From contig CAKOOO010000003.1 of NCBI GenBank assembly GCA_934098665.1, positions 28,125 to 92,124 on the forward strand: a stretch of DNA of 64,000 bases, read 5' to 3'. The notes under the pieces are model-generated. The model had not been told where the DNA came from and did not search any database. It was given only the letters and a program-made list of their open reading frames with translations. Origin of the DNA: an uncultured Bacilli bacterium. Lineage in GTDB: Bacteria; Bacillota_I; Bacilli_A; RF39; UBA660. The position numbers and the translations under genes were made by a program. Shown here piece after piece: positions 36,102 to 64,000 of this stretch (its first letter is position 1; each line of letters starts with the position of its first letter).

Positions 36102-38198
36102 TTACATCACCTTCCTAATTCCTTTATAATTTTTTAAAAACTTTTTAGTACCAAATCTATGATGAAATGCAATTGTAATAAATTTATCATCTATATCTAT
36201 TATAACACCTTTTCCAAAAGTTAAATGTGTAACTATATCACCTTTTTTAAACTCTGCAGTATTTTTACTATTTTCCTCATCATATAATAGTTTAGATTTA
36301 ATACTATGCATTTCTTTTCTTTCTTCTTCTTTATCAAGTAAATTATCACTTATTTCACTTATAAATCTACTTGGAAGATTCATTTGAATAGAGCCATAAA
36401 GCATTCTTCTTGTGGCATTTAAAAGATAAAGTTTTTCTTTTGCTCTTGTTATTGCAACATACATAAGTCTTCTTTCTTCCTCAAGGTCGCCTTCATCATA
36501 AAGTGCTTTTGATATTGGCATAATATTTTCCTCAAGGCCTATAATAAAAACAACTTTAAATTCAAGACCTTTTGCACAGTGTACTGTCATAAGAGTAACT
36601 GCATCACTATCTTCTGAGTACTCTGCAGCATCAGCTACAAGTGATACATCCATTAAAAAGTCAGATAAATTTACATTTCCCGTTTCTTTTTCATAAGTTT
36701 CAGAAACACTTCGAAATTCCATTAAGTTTTCAAGTCTAATATCACTTTCAAGTGATTTATCATTTTCATAAGTTTCTTTCATTTTAGAAAGTTCTAATGT
36801 TTTATCTATTAAACCAGTTATTGAAGTATCTTTACTAATTTCTATTAAATTTAATATTAAATTTTTAAATTCAAGTTCTTTTCCACTATCTATTGCATCG
36901 AATATTGAAATATTATTAACTCTTGCTTTTTCTTTTAAAGCATCAATTGTTTTATCACCAATTTTTCTTTTTGGTTCATTTATAATCCTTTCTAAAGAAA
37001 CATCATCACTTGGATTAGCTATAAGTTTTAAATATGCTAGTAAATCTTTAATTTCTTTTCTTTTATAAAAGTAAAATGAGCCATATACTTTATATGGTAT
37101 ATTTGCTTTAACAAGTGCTTCTTCGATTAAACGTGACTGAGCATTTGTTCTATAAAATACAGCAATATCCTTTCTATTATAACCTTCATTTACTAAATTT
37201 TTTATTTCTTCGACTACTCTTTTATTTTCCATTTCATCGTTATATGCTCTAATATATTTAATATTTACACCTTTTCCTAAATCTGAAAATAAATCTAAAT
37301 CTTTTCTTTGTTTATTATGAGATATTACTTCATTTGCGGCATCAAGTATGGTTTGCGTACTACGATAATTTTGGGGAAGTTTTATTACCGTGCATCCATT
37401 AAAATCTTTTTCAAAATTTAAAATATTTTGAAAATTTGCTCCCCTGAAAGCATAAATTGACTGTGATGGATCTCCAACTACAAAAAGATTTAAATATTTT
37501 TTAGATAAAAGTTTTACAAGTTTATACTGCACTTCATTAGTATCTTGATATTCATCAATTAAAATATATTTAAATCTTTCTTGATACTTTGAAAGTACAT
37601 CTTTATTACTATTAAAAATTTCTACAGGTTTTTTTAGTAAATCATCAAAATCAAGAGTGTTATTTCTTTTTAAAATTTTCTCATATTCATAATATACTTT
37701 AACGGCAATTTTTTCATTTTCGGCAATTAAAAAATTAGCTATTTCACTATCAGAAAGCATATTATTTTTTATAAAGGAAATCTTACTTTTTATAAATGCT
37801 GGACTTACCATTTTATCTGTGATATTTATATCTTTCATTATTTTTTTTATAATACTTGTTTGATCTTCAGTATCTATTAAAGTAAATGTGCTTGTTAAGC
37901 CAAAAAAAGAAGTATTTTCTCTTATAATTTTAAGACCAAATGAATGAAATGTACCTATAAAAGCTCCACTTGCATTTATTAATTTATTAACTCTTTCACG
38001 CATTTCTCCTGCAGCTTTATTAGTAAATGTTATTGCTAAAATATTATATGGATCTATTCCACTATCAATTAAACTAGCAATTCTTGTCGTAAGTACTTTT
38101 GTTTTTCCTGAACCTGCTCCAGCGATGACTAAACATGGGCCATCCTTAAATGTAGCTGCCTTTCTTTGCATTTCATTAAGTTTTTCTAAATAGTCCAT
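36102..38198 (-). CDS. pcrA: ATP-dependent DNA helicase PcrA (UvrD family)
   Basis: AGAGSGKTKVLT Walker A, IDEYQDTN, QNYRST, VTLMTVHCAKGLEF, YVAITRAKE motifs. Confidence 0.95.
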   Translation of the reverse strand: MDYLEKLNEMQRKAATFKDGPCLVIAGAGSGKTKVLTTRIASLIDSGIDPYNILAITFTNKAAGEMRERVNKLINASGAFIGTFHSFGLKIIRENTSFFGLTSTFTLIDTEDQTSIIKKIMKDINITDKMVSPAFIKSKISFIKNNMLSDSEIANFLIAENEKIAVKVYYEYEKILKRNNTLDFDDLLKKPVEIFNSNKDVLSKYQERFKYILIDEYQDTNEVQYKLVKLLSKKYLNLFVVGDPSQSIYAFRGANFQNILNFEKDFNGCTVIKLPQNYRSTQTILDAANEVISHNKQRKDLDLFSDLGKGVNIKYIRAYNDEMENKRVVEEIKNLVNEGYNRKDIAVFYRTNAQSRLIEEALVKANIPYKVYGSFYFYKRKEIKDLLAYLKLIANPSDDVSLERIINEPKRKIGDKTIDALKEKARVNNISIFDAIDSGKELEFKNLILNLIEISKDTSITGLIDKTLELSKMKETYENDKSLESDIRLENLMEFRSVSETYEKETGNVNLSDFLMDVSLVADAAEYSEDSDAVTLMTVHCAKGLEFKVVFIIGLEENIMPISKALYDEGDLEEERRLMYVAITRAKEKLYLLNATRRMLYGSIQMNLPSRFISEISDNLLDKEEERKEMHSIKSKLLYDEENSKNTAEFKKGDIVTHLTFGKGVIIDIDDKFITIAFHHRFGTKKFLKNYKGIRKVM

Positions 38199-58048: not shown

Positions 58049-60193
58049 TTAATCTTCTTTGAAAAGAGATAATTGAACCTTTTCTTTTTCTTTATCAATG
58101 CTTGTTACATAAACTGTTACTATATCGCCCACTAAAAGTATTTGACTTGGATGCTTTATAAAATTTTTACTCATTTTTGAAATATGTACAAGGCCATCAT
58201 TATGAAGACCAATATCCACAAAAGCGCCAAAATCTACTACATTACGTACTGTTCCCTCTAATGCATCACCAACTTTTAAATCTTTAATTTCTAAAATATC
58301 ACTTTTTAAAATTGGTTTTTGCATTTCATCCCTTGGATCACGATGAGGTTTTTTTAAACTATTTATTATAGTTTCAATAGTATATTTGTCACTATTAATT
58401 TCACCAGCTAATTTAATAATATCAACACAATTCAGTTTTTCACTACTCTTTCCTATATCACTTTCTAAAATGCCTAATTTATCCATAACTTTTCTAGCTA
58501 TTTCGTAACTTTCTGGATGAATATCAGTAGTATCAAAAATATTAGTACCGCCTTCAACACGCATAAAGCCTATTGCTTGTTCATAAATTTTTTCACTTAA
58601 AAGTTTATTTTTTAAAACTTCTTCACGAGTAAGTATTTTGCCTTTTTCCTCTCTAAATTTAATTATTTTATCAATTGCTGTTTTAGTAAGACCAGAAATA
58701 TATTTTAATAGTGATCTACTTGCTGTATTTATATTTACTCCAACTTCATTTACAACACTAGTTACCACAAAATCAAGTGATGAAGATAATTTTTTTGCAT
58801 TTACATCATGCTGATAAAGACCAACACCAATACTTTCAGGAGTTATTTTAACAAGTTCTGAAAGTGCATCTTGAAGTCTTCTCCCAATACTTATAGCACT
58901 TCTTTCTTCGACAACAAGATTTGGAAATTCCTTAATAGCAAGTGGTGATGCACTATAAACTGATGCCCCTGCTTCAGAAACAATTATATAATCAACTTTT
59001 CTTTGAATACTTTTTATTACATCAATAATAAATTTTTCACTTTCCCTTGAAGCAGTTCCATTACCAATTGCCACAATATCAATATTATATTCATTAATTA
59101 AATTAATCGTTTTATTTTTTGCTTCATCATACTTATTAACTGGAGGATGAGGATATATTTTTTCAATTTTTAATACCTTTCCCACGGGATTTAAAACAGC
59201 AAGTTTGCAACCCGTTCTGTAAGCAGGGTCAAATCCTAGTACCATTTTATCTTTAATTGGTGGCGTCAAAAGAAGTTTTTCTAAATTATCACTAAAATTT
59301 TTAATGGCAACATCCTCGGCTTTTTCTGACAAAATAGCACGTACTTCCCTTTCAACACTTGGATAAATTAACCTCTTATAACTATCTTTTATAGCATTTA
59401 TCACAATATCACAAACAAAACTTTCTTTGTCTTTAATTATTTTACTTTCAAGAAATTCTAAAACTTTATCATCATCTACATCAATTGAAACACTTATAAC
59501 TTTTTCTTTTTCTGCCCTATTAATTGCTAAAATTCTATATGATTTTGCTTTTGAGACTGCTTCCTTAAAATCATAATACATTTCATAAACTTTTTTCTCA
59601 TCTTCAGCGTCTTTTTTCTTTTTAGTAACTATCAACCCATTTTTGAAAATAAAACTTCTAAGCCATTTACGATAGTATGCATTATCCGAAATATACTCGG
59701 CTATGATATAACTTGCCCCTGTAACTGCTTCTTCATGTGTTTTCACTTTATCATTTATAAATTTAGAACATAAAGATGAAATATCACCTTTTGTAGGAAA
59801 AGCCATTATCATTTTAGCAAGTGGTTCAAGACCATTATTAATTGCATCAGTTGCTTTTGTTTTTTTCTTTTCTTTAAATGGTCTATAAAGGTCCTCGACT
59901 TCAACAAGTTTTTCAGCATTTAATATTTTTTCTTTTAATTCATCAGTAAGTAATCCTTTTTCCTCAATTAACTTAATTACACTTTCTTTTCTATCAAGCA
60001 AATTAATTTCATATGCATAAACTTCGTTAATTTTACGAAGCTGTTCTTCATCTAAAGCACCGGTAACTTCCTTACGATATCTAGCAATAAATGGTATTGT
60101 TGCACCATCAGAAAGTAATTTTAAAGCACTTTCAACTTGACTTTTTTTAACATTTAAATTATTTGCTATATTTTCTATTATTTTTTCATTCAT
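58049..60193 (-). CDS. tex: Tex-like transcription accessory protein (YqgF/RuvC-like, HhH and S1 domains)
   Basis: 714 aa. IPFIARYRKE N-terminus, GFDPAYRTGCK (YqgF domain), C-terminal S1 domain GTVRNVVDFGAFVDIG. Confidence 0.92.
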   Translation of the reverse strand: MNEKIIENIANNLNVKKSQVESALKLLSDGATIPFIARYRKEVTGALDEEQLRKINEVYAYEINLLDRKESVIKLIEEKGLLTDELKEKILNAEKLVEVEDLYRPFKEKKKTKATDAINNGLEPLAKMIMAFPTKGDISSLCSKFINDKVKTHEEAVTGASYIIAEYISDNAYYRKWLRSFIFKNGLIVTKKKKDAEDEKKVYEMYYDFKEAVSKAKSYRILAINRAEKEKVISVSIDVDDDKVLEFLESKIIKDKESFVCDIVINAIKDSYKRLIYPSVEREVRAILSEKAEDVAIKNFSDNLEKLLLTPPIKDKMVLGFDPAYRTGCKLAVLNPVGKVLKIEKIYPHPPVNKYDEAKNKTINLINEYNIDIVAIGNGTASRESEKFIIDVIKSIQRKVDYIIVSEAGASVYSASPLAIKEFPNLVVEERSAISIGRRLQDALSELVKITPESIGVGLYQHDVNAKKLSSSLDFVVTSVVNEVGVNINTASRSLLKYISGLTKTAIDKIIKFREEKGKILTREEVLKNKLLSEKIYEQAIGFMRVEGGTNIFDTTDIHPESYEIARKVMDKLGILESDIGKSSEKLNCVDIIKLAGEINSDKYTIETIINSLKKPHRDPRDEMQKPILKSDILEIKDLKVGDALEGTVRNVVDFGAFVDIGLHNDGLVHISKMSKNFIKHPSQILLVGDIVTVYVTSIDKEKEKVQLSLFKED

Positions 60194-60279
60194 ATTTTAC
60201 CTCTTTTTAAATTATACAAAAAAAGATGGTTTTTTTCTACTATCTTTGATAGATTTTTACACAACCGTTTTTAACGATT

Positions 60280-60609
60280 CTAATAATTATCAACGTTAGT
60301 TTCATATTTTTGTAAAAGTAAATTCATTTGGTATAAATATGTTCCATCAAATGCTAGTGAAAAAAGTGAAATTGGATAATTACTAAATCTCGTTGTACAT
60401 TTAATTTCTATTCCATAATAATCAGGGAAAAACATACTATCTGGTGTTTTTTATATTTCTTTTTCAAAAGTATTTCAAACTGCTGAAGTAAAATTATTAA
60501 CACCTTTAATCCATCCTTTTTTTGCTATTTTTTTAAATTTGGTTATTAAATTTTCATATTTTTCATCTTGTATATCTAATCCTTTTTTAGTATAAAAATT
60601 TAATTTGTG
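60280..60609 (-). pseudogene. Decayed PD-(D/E)XK nuclease-like gene (type II restriction-endonuclease-like), no start codon, two in-frame stops
   Basis: A single minus frame reads HKLNFYTKKGLDIQDEKYENLITKFKKIAKKGWIKGVNNFTSAV*NTFEKEI*KTPDSMFFPDYYGIEIKCTTRF...VDNY*. In-frame TGA at 60477..60475 and TAA at 60453..60451. PD-x4-E-x-K catalytic-type motif. Confidence 0.45.
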
Positions 60610-60709
60610 TTAGAAAAGGCTCATAAGGGCGGTCATAGGTTCCTTGAGCCACCATTGCCAATAAAAAAAGTAGCCCTCACAATGTGAAAACTACTATTAC
60701 TTTTTTTAT

Positions 60710-60734
60710 TGGTGCAGGTAAAGGGACTTGAACC
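60710..60734 (-). tRNA. Displaced tRNA 3'-end fragment (T-loop to CCA), putative prophage attachment-site half
   Basis: The minus strand reads GGTTCAAGTCCCTTTACCTGCACCA: the T-loop box GGTTCAAGTCC, the 3' T-stem, a 7-nt acceptor strand, a discriminator A and CCA. No matching 5' half (GCAGGTA...) within the next 80 nt. Confidence 0.45.
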
Positions 60735-60763
60735 TACTAATAAAATAATCAGGAAAGGAAATT

Positions 60764-60949
60764 TTGAGTTATTTTATTTTGTATGATTTTGAAGATAATA
60801 TTGTATGCTATATTGATAGTTTAAACGAATTTAAATTAAAATTTAATTATCCTGTTTATGAATTAAATAGGAAATTTAAAAATAGTAAATCAAATTTTAT
60901 TTTATTTAATATTGAAAATAAGAAATATAAACTTTACAAGTTTAGTTAG
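60764..60949 (+). CDS. Prophage hypothetical protein (61 aa), TTG start
   Basis: ORF track entry. First ORF inside the element. No recognisable motif. Confidence 0.35.
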   Translation: MSYFILYDFEDNIVCYIDSLNEFKLKFNYPVYELNRKFKNSKSNFILFNIENKKYKLYKFS

Positions 60950-60963
60950 GGAGGAAAATTATT

Positions 60964-61146
60964 ATGTCAAAATATTTTTTATTTTTTATTGGTGGTTTTG
61001 CGTATAGTTATTTTTTAGATTTTTCTATAGAATTAACTAGAAAAAAATGGCGTAAAGAAGCTAATTATAAATGTAATAATTGTAAAGTCTGGGACTGTCC
61101 AGTTCATTATTGTAGAAAGAAAGGAGAAAAAAATGAAAAAAATTAA
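60964..61146 (+). CDS. Prophage small membrane protein with Cys-rich tail
   Basis: GGGAGG RBS. One TM segment (YFLFFIGGFAYSYFL), then CNNCKVWDCPVHYC. Confidence 0.4.
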   Translation: MSKYFLFFIGGFAYSYFLDFSIELTRKKWRKEANYKCNNCKVWDCPVHYCRKKGEKNEKN

Positions 61147-61279
61147 ACATTATGTTATAGAGTTGGTATTTACAGATTCAAAAGATGTAGAATTGTTATT
61201 GTATTATTTAGATTTTTTGAATTTTAAATCACTTGATTATGTTGTTAAGTCTTCTTTTGATGTTGAAAATATAGATTAA
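61133..61279 (+). CDS. Prophage hypothetical protein (48 aa; below the ORF-track cutoff)
   Basis: AAGGAG RBS at 61121-61126, ATG at 61133, MKKIKHYVIELVFTDSKDVELLLYYLDFLNFKSLDYVVKSSFDVENID. Confidence 0.3.
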   Translation: MKKIKHYVIELVFTDSKDVELLLYYLDFLNFKSLDYVVKSSFDVENID

Positions 61280-61356
61280 AATTCTATATTTTTTTTATGC
61301 AATCATGGAGATAGATTTTTTTGATGTTAGACTGATAATAGAAAGGAGCTAAGAAA

Positions 61357-61635
61357 ATGAAAGTTAGTATTATTAAAGTTTCAAGATATGCTTATGAAGA
61401 TAAACAAGGAGCCTATCACGAGGGCACAGTATTATCAGTATTAATGCCTACTGCTGAAACTAAAGATAATGTTGGGTATGATGTCAAACAATTTAGATTA
61501 AATTATAATTTATTCGATGAAATGACAAAATTATTCAAAGAAAATAAACCTGTTGAGTTAGTTATGGACTATGTTCCAATGCGTAATGGTAATTATTATG
61601 CAAAAGCTAAATCAATTAATGGTATTGAATTATAG
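61357..61635 (+). CDS. Prophage protein, candidate ssDNA-binding protein (gVp-like by size and position only)
   Basis: AAAGGAG RBS, 92 aa, beta-rich and soluble, immediately upstream of the coat-type gene as in Ff-type phages. No sequence motif supports the call. Confidence 0.3.
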   Translation: MKVSIIKVSRYAYEDKQGAYHEGTVLSVLMPTAETKDNVGYDVKQFRLNYNLFDEMTKLFKENKPVELVMDYVPMRNGNYYAKAKSINGIEL

Positions 61636-61714
61636 TAAATAGTTGTTAATGCTTTGCTATCTCCTTTTAAGCATTGGCACTGTTTATAGATTAAAAGAAA
61701 GGAGTAAGATACTT

Positions 61715-61918
61715 ATGATGTATTTACTTGATGGTACTGCCGTAAGTGCGGGAGCCGCTTTAAACGAGGGTTTAAAAACTAATATTACCGCTTCAGGAAT
61801 TTTAAGCGAATTTATTAGTGTATTACCTTGGATCGGTGGTATGGTTGCAGTTGCATTTGTAATCTACGAGGCTCGTAAACTTATTAAAGGTACTGCCAAA
61901 GGTAAAGTTAGAGTCTAG
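61715..61918 (+). CDS. Inovirus major coat protein-like (67 aa)
   Basis: The start is moved to the ATG at 61715, which follows AAAGGAG. MMYLLDGTAVSAGA|ALNEGLKTNITASGILSEFISVLPWIGGMVAVAFVIYEARKLIKGTAKGKVRV has an amphipathic N-terminal part, one TM helix and a Lys/Arg-rich C-terminus, which is the classic g8p layout. Confidence 0.6.
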   Translation: MMYLLDGTAVSAGAALNEGLKTNITASGILSEFISVLPWIGGMVAVAFVIYEARKLIKGTAKGKVRV

Positions 61919-61953
61919 TGCTCTAACTTTTTAAAAAGAAAGGAAGATTTTAT

Positions 61954-62067
61954 ATGATAGATGTTTGTGTAACAATGATGTTACAATTATTCGAAATTAT
62001 ACCAATTTATATTGTCATTTATTTCATATTTGATTTTATTGGTAGTTTCTTGTTTGGGAGGAGTTAG
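61954..62067 (+). CDS. Tiny hydrophobic protein (37 aa), minor-coat (g7p/g9p)-like by size and position
   Basis: AAGGAAG RBS. MIDVCVTMMLQLFEIIPIYIVIYFIFDFIGSFLFGRS. Its 3' end supplies the GGGAGGAG RBS of the next ORF. Confidence 0.35.
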   Translation: MIDVCVTMMLQLFEIIPIYIVIYFIFDFIGSFLFGRS

Positions 62068-62069
62068 AA

Positions 62070-62411
62070 ATGATTTATGTTCCCGATATTAACTATAAGT
62101 GTTATGTTATTATTAATTCTGATACTATTAGAGCATATGAACAGGTGCCTTATAACCCTGGATATAATCAAAATATATCAATTAATTACCGTGATTATTA
62201 TATTAATTCTAATTATATTTACACTGATAGTTCACAGACTTTTAGTAGTTATTCTACTCTACCTACTTGTTTAAATAGTGAAGTTTTAACTACTGATTAT
62301 ATGTATAGACTTGATTTTGATAAGATTTTAATTATGTTCTTGATTATGTTTATTTTTATTGTACATGTTCCATTTAAAATGTTTACAAGTTTATTCAGGA
62401 GGTTACGATGA
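62070..62411 (+). CDS. Prophage C-terminally anchored protein (113 aa)
   Basis: Asn/Tyr-rich ectodomain, C-terminal TM (ILIMFLIMFIFIV) plus a basic tail (FRRLR). ATGA overlap with the next gene. Confidence 0.45.
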   Translation: MIYVPDINYKCYVIINSDTIRAYEQVPYNPGYNQNISINYRDYYINSNYIYTDSSQTFSSYSTLPTCLNSEVLTTDYMYRLDFDKILIMFLIMFIFIVHVPFKMFTSLFRRLR

Positions 62412-63442
62412 AAAATATTGATTTAAAACAACTTGCTAAAAAAGTATTTAAATATTTAATAATTACATTATTAATTTGGTTTGTTAAAGTATTTATGTTT
62501 GGTAATGTTAGTGCTGCTACTGTTGATATTCAATTAACTTCATTTAAATATGATACTCGTAATATGTTAAATCTTGATTGGTATTCTATTGGTGCTGGTA
62601 ATTCTCATTTAGAATTTGATTTTGATTTTATTAATAGTAATGTACCTAATACAAGTTATTTGTATACATCAATTGTTTTATGTGCTGATACTACTTATTC
62701 AAGTAGTTATGCTACTGACCCTAGTGAAATTACTAACATACAAATTAATAATACTAATTATAGTTGTACTTATAAAAATTCTTCTTATACTGGAGGAAAA
62801 GTTGTTATTATTAATTTTTTAGCATATAGCACTGGTGCTAATTCTATTGTTATTTATCAAAATGATGATGCTAGTATTCAGTTAATTGATTTTGTTGTAG
62901 ATAGTTCATCTTATGTAAATCCAATGAATTACTCATCACAAACTGCAATTAATCAGAATAGTCAAATTATAAATCAAAATACCACAATTATAAATAAACA
63001 AGACCAAACTAATAGTAAATTAGATGATTTAAATTCTAAAACTGATAAAACTAATCAAGAATTAAAAGATACTAATGATTTTCTAAAGGATAATACCGAG
63101 GCTAATGTTGATGTTTCTGGTTTGGGTACTGTATCAGGTTTATTACCTGCGGGTCCAGTAGATAGTTTACTTAATATTCCATTTAAGTTTTTATCGGTTT
63201 TATCAAGTTCAGTAAGTGGTGCTTGCGTTCCCGTATCTACTAATTGGGTATTTAATACTACACTTAATATTCCGTGCTTTAGTGAACAATTTTATAGTGA
63301 GGTACCTACTGCATTAATGACATTTTTACAGGTTGTACCTTGTGCATTTATTTTAATTAAATATTTTAAACATTTATATAAGAAAGTTGATAGAGCCGTT
63401 ACTATGAATACTACGGCTGATGATGAGTGGGGAGTGATTTAA
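62408..63442 (+). CDS. Prophage large membrane protein, candidate adsorption/minor coat protein (g3p-like by position)
   Basis: N-terminal signal/TM ending ...GNVSAA, central N/Q/K/D-rich low-complexity linker (NQNSQIINQNTTIINKQDQTNSKLDDLNSKTDKTNQELKDTN), C-terminal hydrophobic anchor. Confidence 0.45.
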   Translation: MKNIDLKQLAKKVFKYLIITLLIWFVKVFMFGNVSAATVDIQLTSFKYDTRNMLNLDWYSIGAGNSHLEFDFDFINSNVPNTSYLYTSIVLCADTTYSSSYATDPSEITNIQINNTNYSCTYKNSSYTGGKVVIINFLAYSTGANSIVIYQNDDASIQLIDFVVDSSSYVNPMNYSSQTAINQNSQIINQNTTIINKQDQTNSKLDDLNSKTDKTNQELKDTNDFLKDNTEANVDVSGLGTVSGLLPAGPVDSLLNIPFKFLSVLSSSVSGACVPVSTNWVFNTTLNIPCFSEQFYSEVPTALMTFLQVVPCAFILIKYFKHLYKKVDRAVTMNTTADDEWGVI

Positions 63443-63443
63443 A

Positions 63444-63761
63444 ATGGTAGCAAAATTATTAAATGGCTTTTTTAGCCTATTATTAAAATTATTAATGACT
63501 TTAGTGCAAATTATTTGTTTACCTATTAATGCTTTATTTGACAATGTATTTCCAGATTTTAGTAGTAAATTAACCTTAATTGATAATGGCTTAAATACCG
63601 CTTATAGTGGCTTATCATTTGCCATTAATATTATTCCACCTATGGTAAGAGAAACAATTGCCTTTATTATCTCAATAGAACTTGCAATGCTTGTAATTAT
63701 GAAGTCTACTCATTTAACTAGTAAAGTTTGGACATTGCTTCAAAAAATTAAATTTTGGTAG
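63444..63761 (+). CDS. Prophage polytopic membrane protein (g6p-like by position)
   Basis: 105 aa, 3 hydrophobic segments, starts 1 nt after the preceding gene. Confidence 0.4.
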   Translation: MVAKLLNGFFSLLLKLLMTLVQIICLPINALFDNVFPDFSSKLTLIDNGLNTAYSGLSFAINIIPPMVRETIAFIISIELAMLVIMKSTHLTSKVWTLLQKIKFW

Positions 63762-63767
63762 GTGTCT

Positions 63768-64000
63768 ATGCAATTTTTTAAAACTAAAATTGAATTTAAT
63801 ACATTTTTTAAAAAAGGCTTACCACCAATTGATGATAGATTTGGAGTATATTTCGTTTGTGGTCGTCAAGGTAGTGGTAAAAATTATTATGCAGTTAAAT
63901 TACTGCTCGCGCAAGATAAAGTCACTTGCGCGAGCGTTAAATCTAATGTACACAGTTTAAATATACCAGGTTATAATATTAAATATTTTAACGATATTAC
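63768..64000 (+). CDS. Zot/pI-like assembly ATPase, N-terminal part (runs off the right edge)
   Basis: Partial, so absent from the ORF track. ATG at 63768: MQFFKTKIEFNTFFKKGLPPIDDRFGVYFVCGRQGSGKNYYAVKLLLAQDK... The segment hyFVxGxxGSGK with a following hydrophobic helix resembles the pI/Zot N-terminus. Confidence 0.55.
   Translation, partial: MQFFKTKIEFNTFFKKGLPPIDDRFGVYFVCGRQGSGKNYYAVKLLLAQDKVTCASVKSNVHSLNIPGYNIKYFNDI

Follow-up and report, generated by a model that had tools for sequence, protein, structure and literature searches.

The analysed stretch of DNA (the window) is 64,000 nucleotides long, and the 3.3 kb at its positions 60703 to 64000 very probably represent the left 60% of an inovirus (order Tubulavirales) that is integrated in its complete form of 5,561 bp. 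With the same high confidence, we place the element in a lineage with a morphogenesis ATPase similar to that of Propionibacterium phage B5. The host is an uncultured low-GC gut Firmicute. An earlier note on this DNA had proposed an inovirus-like prophage in a spore-forming Firmicute. The prophage interpretation is supported by a Zot match of the ATPase, by Rep and integrase genes downstream, by a pair of att sites and by circular relatives classified as Inoviridae; the spore-forming host is inferred solely from yqfC/yqfD and spoIIGA/sigE homologues.

Boundaries and mobility of the element

The tail of the window is 100% identical to contig L002, which spans the whole element (window position = L002 position + 59879). 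The ends of the element are a direct repeat of 26 to 32 nt that corresponds to the 3' end of tRNA-Leu(UAG), with a spacing of 5,561 bp. The left copy and the adjoining sequence lie in the window:

60669..60695, minus strand, terminator-like hairpin with T-run (L002 816-790), located just downstream (read as the tRNA) of the displaced 3' end of the tRNA
60703..60734, unstranded, attL, 32-nt direct repeat with one mismatch

attL is the reverse complement of the tRNA-Leu(UAG) 3' end (T-arm, acceptor stem and CCA), and its exact 26-nt core, TTGGTGCAGGTAAAGGGACTTGAACC, occurs once within the window, at 60709-60734. Position 60735, at which the earlier note had let the prophage begin, is indeed the first base past this tRNA fragment. 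attR is located 5,561 bp to the right of attL, beyond the window, where L002 contains an intact tRNA-Leu(UAG) ending ...GGTTCAAGTCCCTTTACCTGCACCA directly after the integrase gene, just as had been predicted for the second att half. The hairpin is host sequence that lay 3' of tRNA-Leu before integration, since the same sequence adjoins the intact tRNA-Leu in empty-site contigs. The coding-strand flip to plus was also seen, at about 60500, and is accompanied by a switch in GC skew from -0.14 to -0.41 (59000-60499) to +0.04 to +0.39.

At the same host locus, four contigs with flanks 99.6 to 99.7% identical lack the element and have one copy of the core. The site is occupied in at least five contigs from other samples. 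Copies of the element are 99.9 to 100% identical across samples and cohorts, and 12 of 12 ORFs are intact. Furthermore, a variant with 96.9% identity carries another integrase and lies in tRNA-Glu, where it has a separate 28-nt repeat; the integration neighbors of relatives are tRNA-His, tRNA-Ala and tRNA-Glu. The intact ORFs, the near-identical copies, the polymorphic insertion and the variant with another integrase and tRNA target indicate that this genuine element was recently mobile. These four observations also argue against the idea that a genuine inovirus-type prophage has become cryptic and now stays integrated or forms only a plasmid-like circle, with no infectious filaments, which we consider unlikely. 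In its favor, all assembled copies of the exact element are integrated, and neither the contigs nor the collection scans yielded an attP junction of it; however, excised circles are seldom recovered in bulk-metagenome assemblies.

Gene content and the Zot/pI-like ATPase

The genes of the element that lie in the window are as follows (transmembrane [TM] calls for p67 to p206 are from a hydropathy scan):

60764..60949, plus strand, p61: 61 aa, soluble, TTG start
60964..61146, plus strand, p60: 60 aa, hydrophobic N-terminus, Cys-rich basic C-terminus (CNNC...C...C)
61133..61279, plus strand, p48: 48 aa, acidic, overlapping p60
61357..61635, plus strand, p92: 92 aa, soluble, predicted OB fold
61715..61918, plus strand, p67: 67 aa, amphipathic N-terminal part, one TM segment (33-51), basic tail RKLIKGTAKGKVRV
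61954..62067, plus strand, p37: 37 aa, single TM segment
62070..62411, plus strand, p113: 113 aa, Tyr/Asn-rich ectodomain, C-terminal TM anchor
62408..63442, plus strand, p344: 344 aa, signal-like N-terminus (...GNVSAA), variable N-terminal domain, N/Q/T/K-rich linker, conserved TM-anchored C-terminal domain
63444..63761, plus strand, p105: 105 aa, polytopic membrane protein with at least two TM segments
63768..64000, plus strand, p206: first 77 codons, Walker A motif GRQGSGKN; the gene continues about 390 nt past the window

All ORFs listed earlier were thus recovered on the plus strand at their positions, and the membrane layout proposed for p67, p37, p113, p344 and p105 agrees with the hydropathy scan. 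Coding sequence covers about 93% of 60764-64000 (sum of ORF coordinates). The described tight coupling was measured as a 14-nt overlap of p60 and p48, an ATGA overlap of p113 and p344, and gaps of 2 nt (p37 to p113), 1 nt (p344 to p105) and 6 nt (p105 to p206). Protein-level conservation in related elements of other hosts shows that p61, p67, p37, p113, the C-terminal part of p344, p105 and p206 are products of genuine genes rather than of chance ORFs.

p61 did not match Pfam or PHROG, but homologues with 33 to 55% identity are found at the equivalent position in L001 (the 96.9%-identical variant), L009, L012, L018 and L019. It is always the first gene past attP/attL in relatives and may therefore be a regulator or a recombination-directionality factor. 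p60 is a lineage-specific accessory gene; it is present only in identical copies of the element and is replaced by another short ORF in L001. p48 is 96% identical in L001 and missing from more distant relatives. The soluble 92-aa gene exists as noted earlier, but its conservation is limited to very close relatives (six homologues). The AlphaFold model of p92 (pLDDT 88, topology b1-b2-b3-alpha-b4-b5) makes it a candidate single-stranded DNA (ssDNA)-binding protein analogous to gene V protein or RstB: fold matches in the PDB are weak (E ≥ 0.025; TM-score about 0.5) and mostly to SSBs and the Ff gene V protein, and the top match in a viral library is an "RstB-like protein" (E = 2e-3).

Judged by size, hydropathy, charge and position, the next four genes are candidates for virion proteins. 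p67 is the candidate major coat protein. It occupies the position of B5 Orf5 (57 aa), and its family alignment (A4) has a conserved LPW(V/I)G...RKLIKGxxKGKV pattern. Profile searches suggested in the earlier note were successful for Zot and for an HUH Rep but not for coat families, as p67 had no detectable sequence homology to coat families in Pfam and the PDB. p37 is a candidate minor tip protein analogous to pVII/pIX (35 to 64% conserved in relatives and annotated as a CDS in those in GenBank), and p113 is a candidate minor virion protein (40 to 58% conserved). p344, which shares its signal-plus-anchor layout with B5 Orf6, is a candidate adsorption/terminal protein analogous to pIII; it is conserved only C-terminally, from residue 86 to 231 onward depending on the relative, and the N-terminal part is divergent. 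p105 is 28 to 68% conserved in all relatives, always directly upstream of the ATPase gene, and its best, weak B5 match is the positional equivalent, Orf7. It could be either a pVI analogue or a membrane partner of the TM-less ATPase.

Sequence and structure comparisons support p206 as a Zot/pI-like morphogenesis ATPase. The fragment in the window alone was below the threshold for Pfam Zot (E = 0.043), but the full-length protein (206 aa, from the identical contig L002) scored 24.1 bits against a gathering threshold of 20.3, a margin of 4 bits, and matched PHROG 197 ("Zot-like") at 7.7e-10. Its AlphaFold model (pLDDT 81) has as top PDB match 2R2A, the N-terminal domain of Zot (E = 2.9e-9; TM-score 0.59 to 0.63). 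The ORF at 63768 is thus Zot related, as had been claimed; the match concerns the NTPase domain only and does not imply a toxin. No TM segment was found in p206 by the hydropathy scan. p206 has no counterpart of the membrane and C-terminal domains found in canonical pI, which could be taken as a sign of a cryptic prophage, but the short, TM-less form is the norm in this ATPase family (almost all of 169 representatives are <310 aa), and the ATPase of the filament-forming phage B5 is TM-less as well. The HMM of the p206 family reaches B5 Orf8 with 40 bits (E = 3.6e-12).

Replication module and relatives

The replication and integration modules lie beyond the window edge, as had been expected, and were found in L002: downstream of the ATPase gene are only an intergenic origin region, a gene for an HUH Rep (PF01719) and, at the right end adjoining tRNA-Leu(UAG), a tyrosine integrase gene. 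No portal, terminase or tail genes were found in the element, its downstream part included, again in line with the earlier claim. Rep is a pMV158/RepB-type HUH initiator (Rep_OBD at 8.7e-17) with an HUH motif that can be aligned with that of RepB. The intergenic region has a folding z of -7.9, and a hairpin about 40 nt upstream of the Rep gene has the loop CACTACG/AC on the coding strand, which matches the RepB nick sequence, published as TACTACG/AC in the IR-I loop (PMC1851628, PMC3387028). The loop, CACTACGAC, agrees with the RepB 9-mer in 8 of 9 positions (9 of 9 in L001), and the nick 9-mer occupies the loop of a hairpin in 10 related elements with differing stem sequences. Two 7-bp direct repeats (GGTGTCA) lie beside the right arm of the hairpin, and pMV158-family plasmids likewise combine Rep_OBD, the HUH motif, a nick 9-mer in a hairpin loop and two 7-bp repeats (PMC1851628). 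In contrast to these plasmids, the element has its replicon as one among several modules of a phage genome, and no distal bind-locus repeats were identified. This type of Rep and origin is best known from plasmids.

Could the element be an integrative rolling-circle plasmid or a small integrative mobilizable element, with membrane and ATPase genes serving DNA transfer or another membrane function? Its Rep and nick site are those of the pMV158 family, and the small membrane proteins match no known coat family. However, Pfam and PHROG searches revealed no relaxase, coupling protein or mobilization gene, the best sequence-family and structural matches of the ATPase are both Zot/pI, and its family profile detects the ATPase of B5, a bona fide filamentous phage whose genes are arranged in the same way. 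Moreover, the layout of p67, whose basic tail is invariant, is specifically that of a coat protein; p344 combines a variable N-terminal part with a conserved C-terminal one, as a receptor-binding virion protein does; and relatives have been deposited as viruses. According to the legend to Fig. 5b of Roux 2019 (PMC6813254), an RCR plasmid-type Rep is a known inovirus replication module. A plasmid or mobilizable element is therefore highly improbable.

The element belongs to a small gut inovirus lineage for which public database entries already exist. Its closest deposited relatives are bajarodino viruses 14, 28, 37, 42 and 49 (GenBank PQ006174, PQ006156, PQ006158, PQ006141 and PQ006130; rodent feces, Mexico), with genomes of 4.4 to 5.4 kb and ATPases 78 to 81% identical to p206. 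The records inspected (14, 49 and the more distant 33) are classified as Inoviridae, and both 14 and 49 have circular genomes. For the two records that were read fully, the order is as here: Zot, Rep, integrase or repressor, p61-like protein, coat, 37 aa, about 113 aa, large anchored protein and 105 aa. Viruses 14 and 49 share 44 to 66% identity in p67, p37, p113, p105 and the C-terminal part of p344 with the element, and 26 to 35% in Rep. Nucleotide similarity to the bajarodino viruses is about 70% over just 11 to 39% of the element, and their integrase, tRNA target and left-end genes p60, p48 and p92 are different or absent. These records name no host, whereas the copy described here sits in an identifiable host chromosome. 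The related contig L028 is circular (30-nt terminal overlap) and encodes Zot, Rep and an integrase; a tRNA-like attP lies between its integrase gene and a p61-like ORF, which directly follows attP as judged by eye. PQ006130 has an integrase and a tRNA-like attP in the same arrangement.

Phage B5 (AF428260; Paulinoviridae, Bifilivirus; 5.8 kb), a filamentous phage isolate whose host is Gram-positive, has its genes in the same order: small TM proteins, 57-aa coat, large signal-plus-anchor protein, 90-aa membrane protein, TM-less Zot-like ATPase and Rep. Apart from the ATPase (308 aa versus 206 aa), its proteins had no detectable homology to those of the element (E ≥ 0.03, 10-protein search); its 405-aa Rep has no detectable similarity, no integrase is annotated and the genome is high GC. 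Among pig fecal virome inoviruses with B5-type gpI (MT1352xx), some have a RepB-type Rep 35 to 39% identical to that of the element, but their ATPases are just 24 to 29% identical to p206 and form separate clusters. Many such inoviruses with small genomes were found in virus-particle preparations from pig gut, most contigs being circular with predicted Firmicute hosts (Billaud et al. 2021, PMC9723715). The remark in the earlier note that few filamentous phages of Gram-positive bacteria are characterized holds for isolates but not for sequences, which are available from Roux 2019 (PMC6813254), pig viromes (PMC9723715) and Enterocloster inoviruses (PMC10061712).

Proposed life cycle

The Ff phages (M13/fd/f1) of Escherichia coli have a similar order of modules (ssDNA-binding, small tip, major coat, adsorption, polytopic, ATPase), a hairpin-rich intergenic region and a plus-strand nick at the origin, the latter being inferred for the element. 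Ff pI has 348 aa and, besides a TM segment, a periplasmic domain in contact with the pIV secretin; pXI arises from an internal start. The element, in contrast, has a soluble 206-aa ATPase and no secretin, a RepB-type instead of a gpII-type Rep, and its own tyrosine recombinase for integration.

In the proposed life cycle, the integrase would excise a circular double-stranded replicative form, and Rep would nick the plus strand at the hairpin, so that plus-strand circles are released by rolling-circle replication. The ssDNA would be coated by the OB-fold protein p92, and the long hairpins that separate the ATPase gene from the nick site could serve as packaging signal and minus-strand origin. 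p67 as major coat protein, p37 and p113 as minor proteins and p344 as adsorption/terminal protein with its variable N-terminal domain would reside in the membrane. The soluble Zot-like ATPase, which probably docks on the polytopic protein p105, would then drive extrusion of the filament, and a secretin would be unnecessary because the host is single-membraned.

Boundaries and gene content of the integrated element

An exact look-up of p344, the 344-aa candidate adsorption protein, matched 13 contigs. One of these, L002 (7,481 bp), is 100% identical to window 60001-64000 and extends past the window end, and window positions are obtained from it by adding 59879 to the L002 position. The element as read from this contig is 5,561 bp long and carries 12 ORFs, tightly packed and on one strand only. 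All of the ORFs by which the earlier note had described an Inovirus-like prophage from about 60735 were found on the plus strand, each at the position proposed:

60764-60949, plus strand, ORF for p61 (TTG start)
60964-61146, plus strand, ORF for p60
61133-61279, plus strand, ORF for p48
61357-61635, plus strand, ORF for p92
61715-61918, plus strand, ORF for p67
61954-62067, plus strand, ORF for p37
62070-62411, plus strand, ORF for p113
62408-63442, plus strand, ORF for p344
63444-63761, plus strand, ORF for p105
from 63768, plus strand, P-loop ORF (p206), cut at the window end

The p60 and p48 ORFs overlap by 14 nt and p113 and p344 by an ATGA, only 2, 1, and 6 nt lie at the p37/p113, p344/p105, and p105/p206 junctions, respectively, and Shine-Dalgarno-like motifs sit within the preceding genes. 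The membrane layout described in the earlier note was reproduced by a Kyte-Doolittle scan. Upstream of the element, the host genes lie on the minus strand throughout, and the sign of the GC skew flips at about 60500; the GC content is 26.5% for the element versus 25.3% for the host. A 26-nt fragment of a tRNA 3' end is located at 60709-60734, and thus the proposed start, 60735, is the first base past the attachment-site core. ARAGORN did not find a tRNA in the window because just these 26 nt of one are present.

Beyond the window, the element continues with the rest of the p206 gene, a 256-nt intergenic region, a gene for a 192-aa Rep (Rep192), and a gene for a 319-aa tyrosine integrase. The replication and integration modules expected past the window edge were thus read from the identical contig. 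A fragment of a tailed phage was also considered, but Pfam and PHROG scans detected no portal, terminase, capsid, or tail genes within the element, including immediately downstream of the ORF at 63768, and the boundaries enclose just the 12 ORFs; this possibility was therefore ruled out. The nine complete small proteins gave no significant match in the same scans. A promoter scan was nearly uninformative in this AT-rich DNA (54 sites versus 42 expected), with the exception of a perfect TTGACA-16 nt-TATAAT (12/12) at L002 5373-5400, 22 nt upstream of the integrase start codon, which suggests that the integrase has a strong promoter of its own, apart from the structural operon.

The integrase matched PF00589 (6e-20), PF14659 (5e-7), and PHROG 1 (1.7e-43). 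Its gene is directly followed by an intact tRNA-Leu(UAG), then by tRNA-Met and the infC-rpmI-rplT operon. The 26 nt at 60709-60734 recur, 5,561 bp away, as the 3' end of this tRNA-Leu(UAG) (32 nt if one mismatch is allowed); this copy is the second att half that had been sought at the far end. An integrase gene adjoining a reconstituted tRNA whose 3' end is duplicated fits the geometry of a tRNA-targeting tyrosine-recombinase element. Four contigs from other samples (L033-L036), recovered because they encode a near-identical YqfD, have the same host locus with 99.6-99.7% identity, one copy of the core, and no element, and the sequence across this empty site is exactly the predicted attB, ...ACTTTTTTTA-TTGGTGCAGGTAAAGGGACTTGAACC-CCCACG.... 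At least five further contigs have the occupied allele, and the five that contain a substantial part of the element (L003-L007) match L002 with 99.9-100% identity over that part. On the minus strand at window 60669-60695, a terminator-like hairpin represents the original host terminator downstream of tRNA-Leu. By these data, the element was inserted into the host locus, and recently so. In JGI metagenomes, neither the predicted empty-site 42-mer nor the attL/attP arm was matched exactly, and the same was true of the predicted attP junction (...GTGTAATAATTTTAA-core-TACTAATAAAATAATCAGG...) in IMG/VR. None of the contigs carrying p61 has an integrase gene upstream of it, and an excised circle of the exact element was not found.

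Several other features of the host locus were observed. A degenerate 3' half of a tRNA-Met (GGCTCATAAGGGCGGTCATAGGTTCCTTGAGCCACCA; window 60618-60655, plus strand) runs from the anticodon loop to CCA with an internal deletion; the real tRNA-Met, located past the prophage, has the opposite orientation. Since the empty-site strains have the degenerate copy too, it predates the insertion of the element; it may be the scar of an older integration. Between Tex and attL, at window 60280-60600 (minus strand), lie broken ORFs (51 aa, 31 aa, and more in-frame pieces) containing PDYYGIEIKC, which resembles a PD-(D/E)XK nuclease motif. By eye, this stretch looks like a decayed gene for a restriction-endonuclease-like protein; the 51-aa piece had no match in NCBIfam. 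The rplT gene beside the integration site (L002 6689-7255; L031 653-1219; L033 6214-6780) encodes a 188-aa L20 with a C-terminal extension that has a precomputed Rho_N match (PF07498) besides Ribosomal_L20, an unusual rplT fusion. The sole Rfam match in the window at gathering score is RF03531 (n00280) at 36412-36509 (minus strand; 67.8 versus 65.2 bits), a Clostridioides difficile sRNA described as being inside a helicase gene. The host was found in Hadza and other gut metagenome assemblies. The window contains homologues of the sporulation genes for YqfC and YqfD, and spoIIGA and a sigma factor gene are nearby; this gene content is consistent with a spore-former but is no proof of one.

Replication origin, ATPase, and candidate structural proteins

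Rep192 has a Rep_OBD domain (PF01719; E = 8.7e-17), and its H62-W-H64 aligns with the HUH motif of RepB of pMV158. RepB cuts TACTACG/AC in the loop of hairpin IR-I (PMC1851628; PMC3387028). The intergenic region upstream of rep is highly structured (-48.5 kcal/mol; z = -7.9 versus shuffled controls), and Rfam has no match in the element region. The loop of its last hairpin (L002 4698-4727; CAAATGCT[ACACTACGACTAAA]AGCATTTG) contains eight of the nine bases of the pMV158-family nick sequence, 5'-TACTACG/AC-3', and all nine are present in L001, a variant of the element located in a different tRNA gene. The motif was also found in a hairpin loop just upstream of rep in ten relatives carrying Rep_OBD. 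Since their stems differ in sequence (AT-rich in some, G/C runs in others) while the hairpin is kept, covariation supports the structure. Next to the right arm of the hairpin lies a pair of 7-bp repeats (GGTGTCA), placed like the proximal repeats of pMV158. Judged by this motif, the coding strand would be nicked between L002 4715 and 4716, and the displaced strand would then be the plus strand. In Ff, the plus strand is displaced and packaged, and the same presumably holds for the element. The packaging signal and the minus-strand origin may reside in the longer hairpins between the stop codon of the ATPase gene and the nick site.

Only 77 aa of the ATPase are encoded inside the window, and this fragment alone matched Zot below the threshold (E = 0.043); therefore, the full gene was taken from L002. 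Full-length p206 matched Pfam PF05707 (Zot) with 24.1 bits versus a gathering threshold of 20.3 (E = 2.8e-5) and PHROG 197 'Zot-like' with 7.7e-10. Thus, of the families for which the earlier note had suggested HMM searches, Zot and an HUH Rep were detected; a described coat family was not. The AlphaFold model of p206 (pLDDT 81, pTM 0.82) had its best PDB fold match in 2R2A, the N-terminal domain of Neisseria Zot (E = 2.9e-9; TM 0.59-0.63), with viral packaging ATPases and pilus ATPases ranking below it, and 2R2A was also the sole PDB match of the sequence profile of the ATPase family (E = 0.033). The family is compact: clustering at 90% identity gives 773 clusters, and at 50% there are 169 representatives, almost all shorter than 310 aa; scanning IMG/VR with the ATPase alignment yielded one distant contig.

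The canonical pI of the Ff type has a transmembrane (TM) segment and a C-terminal extracytoplasmic domain after the ATPase, but p206 ends at residue 206 and lacks both: no 19-residue window reaches a Kyte-Doolittle hydropathy of ≥1.6. In Zot of Vibrio cholerae CTXphi, the tight-junction activity is carried by the C-terminal region. p206 has no such C-terminal extension, and its match spans only positions 2-139 of Pfam Zot, the NTPase domain. As read from the sequence, the name Zot here covers the NTPase domain alone, and the toxin region is absent. In several relatives, an extra 29-aa ORF precedes the ATPase gene, between the p105 and p206 homologues (L024, 3451-3540; L028, 2512-2601); the window element has just the 6-nt spacer there.

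The series p67-p37-p113-p344 (C-terminal part)-p105-p206 is a core that is conserved both in circular viral genomes and in prophages of other genomes. In Kyte-Doolittle plots, p67 and p37 each show a single TM segment, after which p67 (TM at 33-51) ends in a basic tail; p113 has a C-terminal anchor, p344 has a signal-like N terminus and a C-terminal anchor, and p105 has at least two TM segments. p67 and p37 are coat-like (30-90 aa, single TM, near the ATPase gene) by sequence features alone, which is the criterion used for detection. Homologues of p67 share LPW(V/I)G in the TM segment and an almost invariant tail, RKLIKGxxKGKV(R/K), the layout that would be expected of a major coat protein contacting DNA. 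p67 had no match to a Pfam coat family at E ≤ 10 and none to a coat protein in the PDB, and its family profile gave only spurious TM matches in PDB and Pfam; coat proteins without detectable homology are common in divergent inoviruses, and their absence here is not decisive. Of p344, the C-terminal part alone is conserved, beginning at residue 86-231 depending on the relative, and the N-terminal part diverges, as would be expected if that part binds the host receptor.

p92 was predicted with good confidence (pLDDT 88) to form a barrel of five strands, with a single helix between the third and the fourth, which is an OB-fold topology; this model is built on a shallow alignment since p92 has only 6 homologues. 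Its PDB fold matches are dominated by bacterial SSBs and the Ff gene V protein, and the best match among viral models is an 'RstB-like protein'; all of these are weak (E = 2e-3 to 0.2; TM of about 0.5). In relatives, the gene is replaced by other short genes. From the model, p92 is a plausible candidate for an ssDNA-binding protein.

Relatives and kinship

The L001 variant is 96.9% identical to the element from p48 to Rep, but its left end is different, its integrase is just 45% identical, and it sits in tRNA-Glu(UUC) with a 28-nt repeat of its own. More distant relatives adjoin tRNA-His, tRNA-Ala, and tRNA-Glu(CUC), the integrase gene always abutting the tRNA 3' end. The divergence of the integrases and the differing tRNA targets argue that the integrase/attP cassette is exchanged within the lineage. 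By sequence comparison, swaps of the cassette involve at least five tRNA targets, and Rep families are exchanged too; one relative (L024) has a Rep of another family (PF23343). Replication and integration modules are traded among inoviruses (PMC6813254), and this is what the lineage shows.

The nearest records in the GenBank phage collection are the bajarodino viruses 14, 28, 37, 42, and 49 from rodent faeces in Mexico (4.4-5.4 kb), with an ATPase 78-81% identical to p206 and about 70% nucleotide similarity across 11-39% of the element. The inspected records are classified as Inoviridae, and numbers 14 and 49 are circular and have the gene order of the element; no paper on 'bajarodino' viruses was found. 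Genomes of 'Inovirus sp.' from pig faeces are more distant. According to the paper on these pig genomes, 52% of 344 inovirus contigs in virus-particle preparations had a gpI of the B5 type (PMC9723715). The Logan contig L028 (5,681 bp) carries Zot, Rep_OBD, and integrase, and it is circular as judged by a 30-nt terminal overlap. A mimic of a tRNA 3' end separates its integrase gene from a p61-like ORF, which is how attP should be arranged given the prophage structure of our element; PQ006130 has the same arrangement.

In the GTDB species set, relatives were found in 12 genomes. Most carriers are MAGs from rabbit, mouse, goat, or human gut, labelled uncultured Bacilli, Mollicutes, Tenericutes, or Firmicutes. 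RF39, a gut lineage, was considered as a possible host, and we found no paper mentioning both inoviruses and RF39. Related ATPase genes were also seen on a 2.6-kb contig labelled Candidatus Gracilibacteria (L017) and a 41-kb contig labelled Candidatus Saccharibacteria (L022); these labels are probably binning errors, and if real, they would mean a striking host range. A related 4.5-kb element is present in two tandem copies in a rabbit-gut Bacilli MAG (L015 5184-13904, 262-kb contig; period 4,519 nt, 99.95% identical); neither an integrase nor a tRNA adjoins them, and the arrangement resembles the tandem arrays of CTXphi-type inoviruses. A second, different segment lies about 7 kb upstream of the tRNA-Glu-integrated variant, at L001 1-1339 (Hadza contig NODE_762). 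It encodes a protein of 437 aa that is cut off at the locus edge, a polytopic protein of 91 aa, and a Rep_OBD protein of 194 aa with 30% identity to Rep192, and has a hairpin with TACTACGAC in the loop. No Zot-like gene is present between them. This may be a second, degraded or ATPase-less inovirus-like element on the same chromosome.

Roux et al. define an inovirus prophage by its small size, an ATPase like pI, small coat-like TM proteins, and canonical att sites, for which a direct repeat of 10 bp or more has to lie in a tRNA or beside an integrase (PMC6813254). Under this operational definition, the element is an inovirus prophage. Inoviruses of single-membrane hosts fall into separate candidate families, and family assignment rests on shared gene content (PMC6813254). 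An HMM of the ATPase family, made from 79 representatives plus the query, matched Orf8 of Propionibacterium phage B5 with 40.2 bits (E = 3.6e-12). B5 is a filamentous phage that has been isolated and has a Gram-positive host. Like p206, Orf8 has no TM window. The gene order of B5 is also the same: two tiny proteins with TM segments come first, then a coat-like protein of 57 aa, a 485-aa protein that has both signal and anchor, a membrane protein of 90 aa, ATPase, and Rep, with Orf3-Orf9 corresponding in order and membrane layout to the element. The other B5 proteins had no significant match, the best being positional equivalents with E = 0.03 in a 10-protein search. Thus, only the ATPase and the gene order are demonstrably common to both, and shared gene content beyond the ATPase was not found.

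Since the hosts are labelled Mollicutes or Tenericutes, kinship to plectroviruses (Plectroviridae) was considered. The ORFs of Acholeplasma phage MV-L1 reached at best E = 0.044 at 7 bits with the ATPase-family HMM, and tblastn of the phage collection, the search by which Spiroplasma phages were covered, returned no plectrovirus. With no similarity to MV-L1, this kinship was ruled out. The element differs from Ff in its short soluble ATPase, its plasmid-type Rep, the lack of a secretin, and the presence of an integrase of its own.

In sum, both the observation in the earlier note and its interpretation as an inovirus hold, given the Zot-like ATPase, the att sites, the Rep, and the lack of tailed-phage genes. 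The element is complete and is probably an active integrated filamentous phage. The circular relatives and the pig virus-particle data (PMC9723715) lend indirect support to a filamentous virion with circular ssDNA that would leave the cell without lysis. It is no new kind of element, its lineage being already represented by metagenomic virus genomes.

Implications for filamentous phages of gut Bacilli

A more far-reaching reading, which we regard as rather unlikely, is that the lineage is a separate family-level clade of Tubulavirales specialized on uncultured low-GC gut Bacilli, the hosts with NCBI labels Bacilli, Mollicutes, or Tenericutes, and characterized by a split, minimal assembly machine and by tRNA retargeting. 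In such a clade, the polytopic p105 (105 aa), encoded by a gene of its own, would hold the soluble 206-aa Zot-like ATPase at the membrane and do the job of both the transmembrane part of pI and pXI, and the lineage would retarget among tRNA genes through swaps of the integrase/attP cassette. If true, this would be the smallest secretin-less filament-export apparatus known.

Small inoviruses with B5-type ATPases are abundant in mammalian gut viromes, and almost none has a known host. The window links one of them to a specific chromosome of an uncultured low-GC gut Firmicute (25% GC). The window adds this host link, the exact att sites, the occupied and empty alleles, and a defined origin. With these in hand, excision and chronic shedding can be assayed by PCR of the attP and attB junctions and Rep by means of an oligonucleotide with the nick site. 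The element shows the modularity of these phages and provides a compact case for a filament crossing a single-membrane envelope with an anchorless ATPase.
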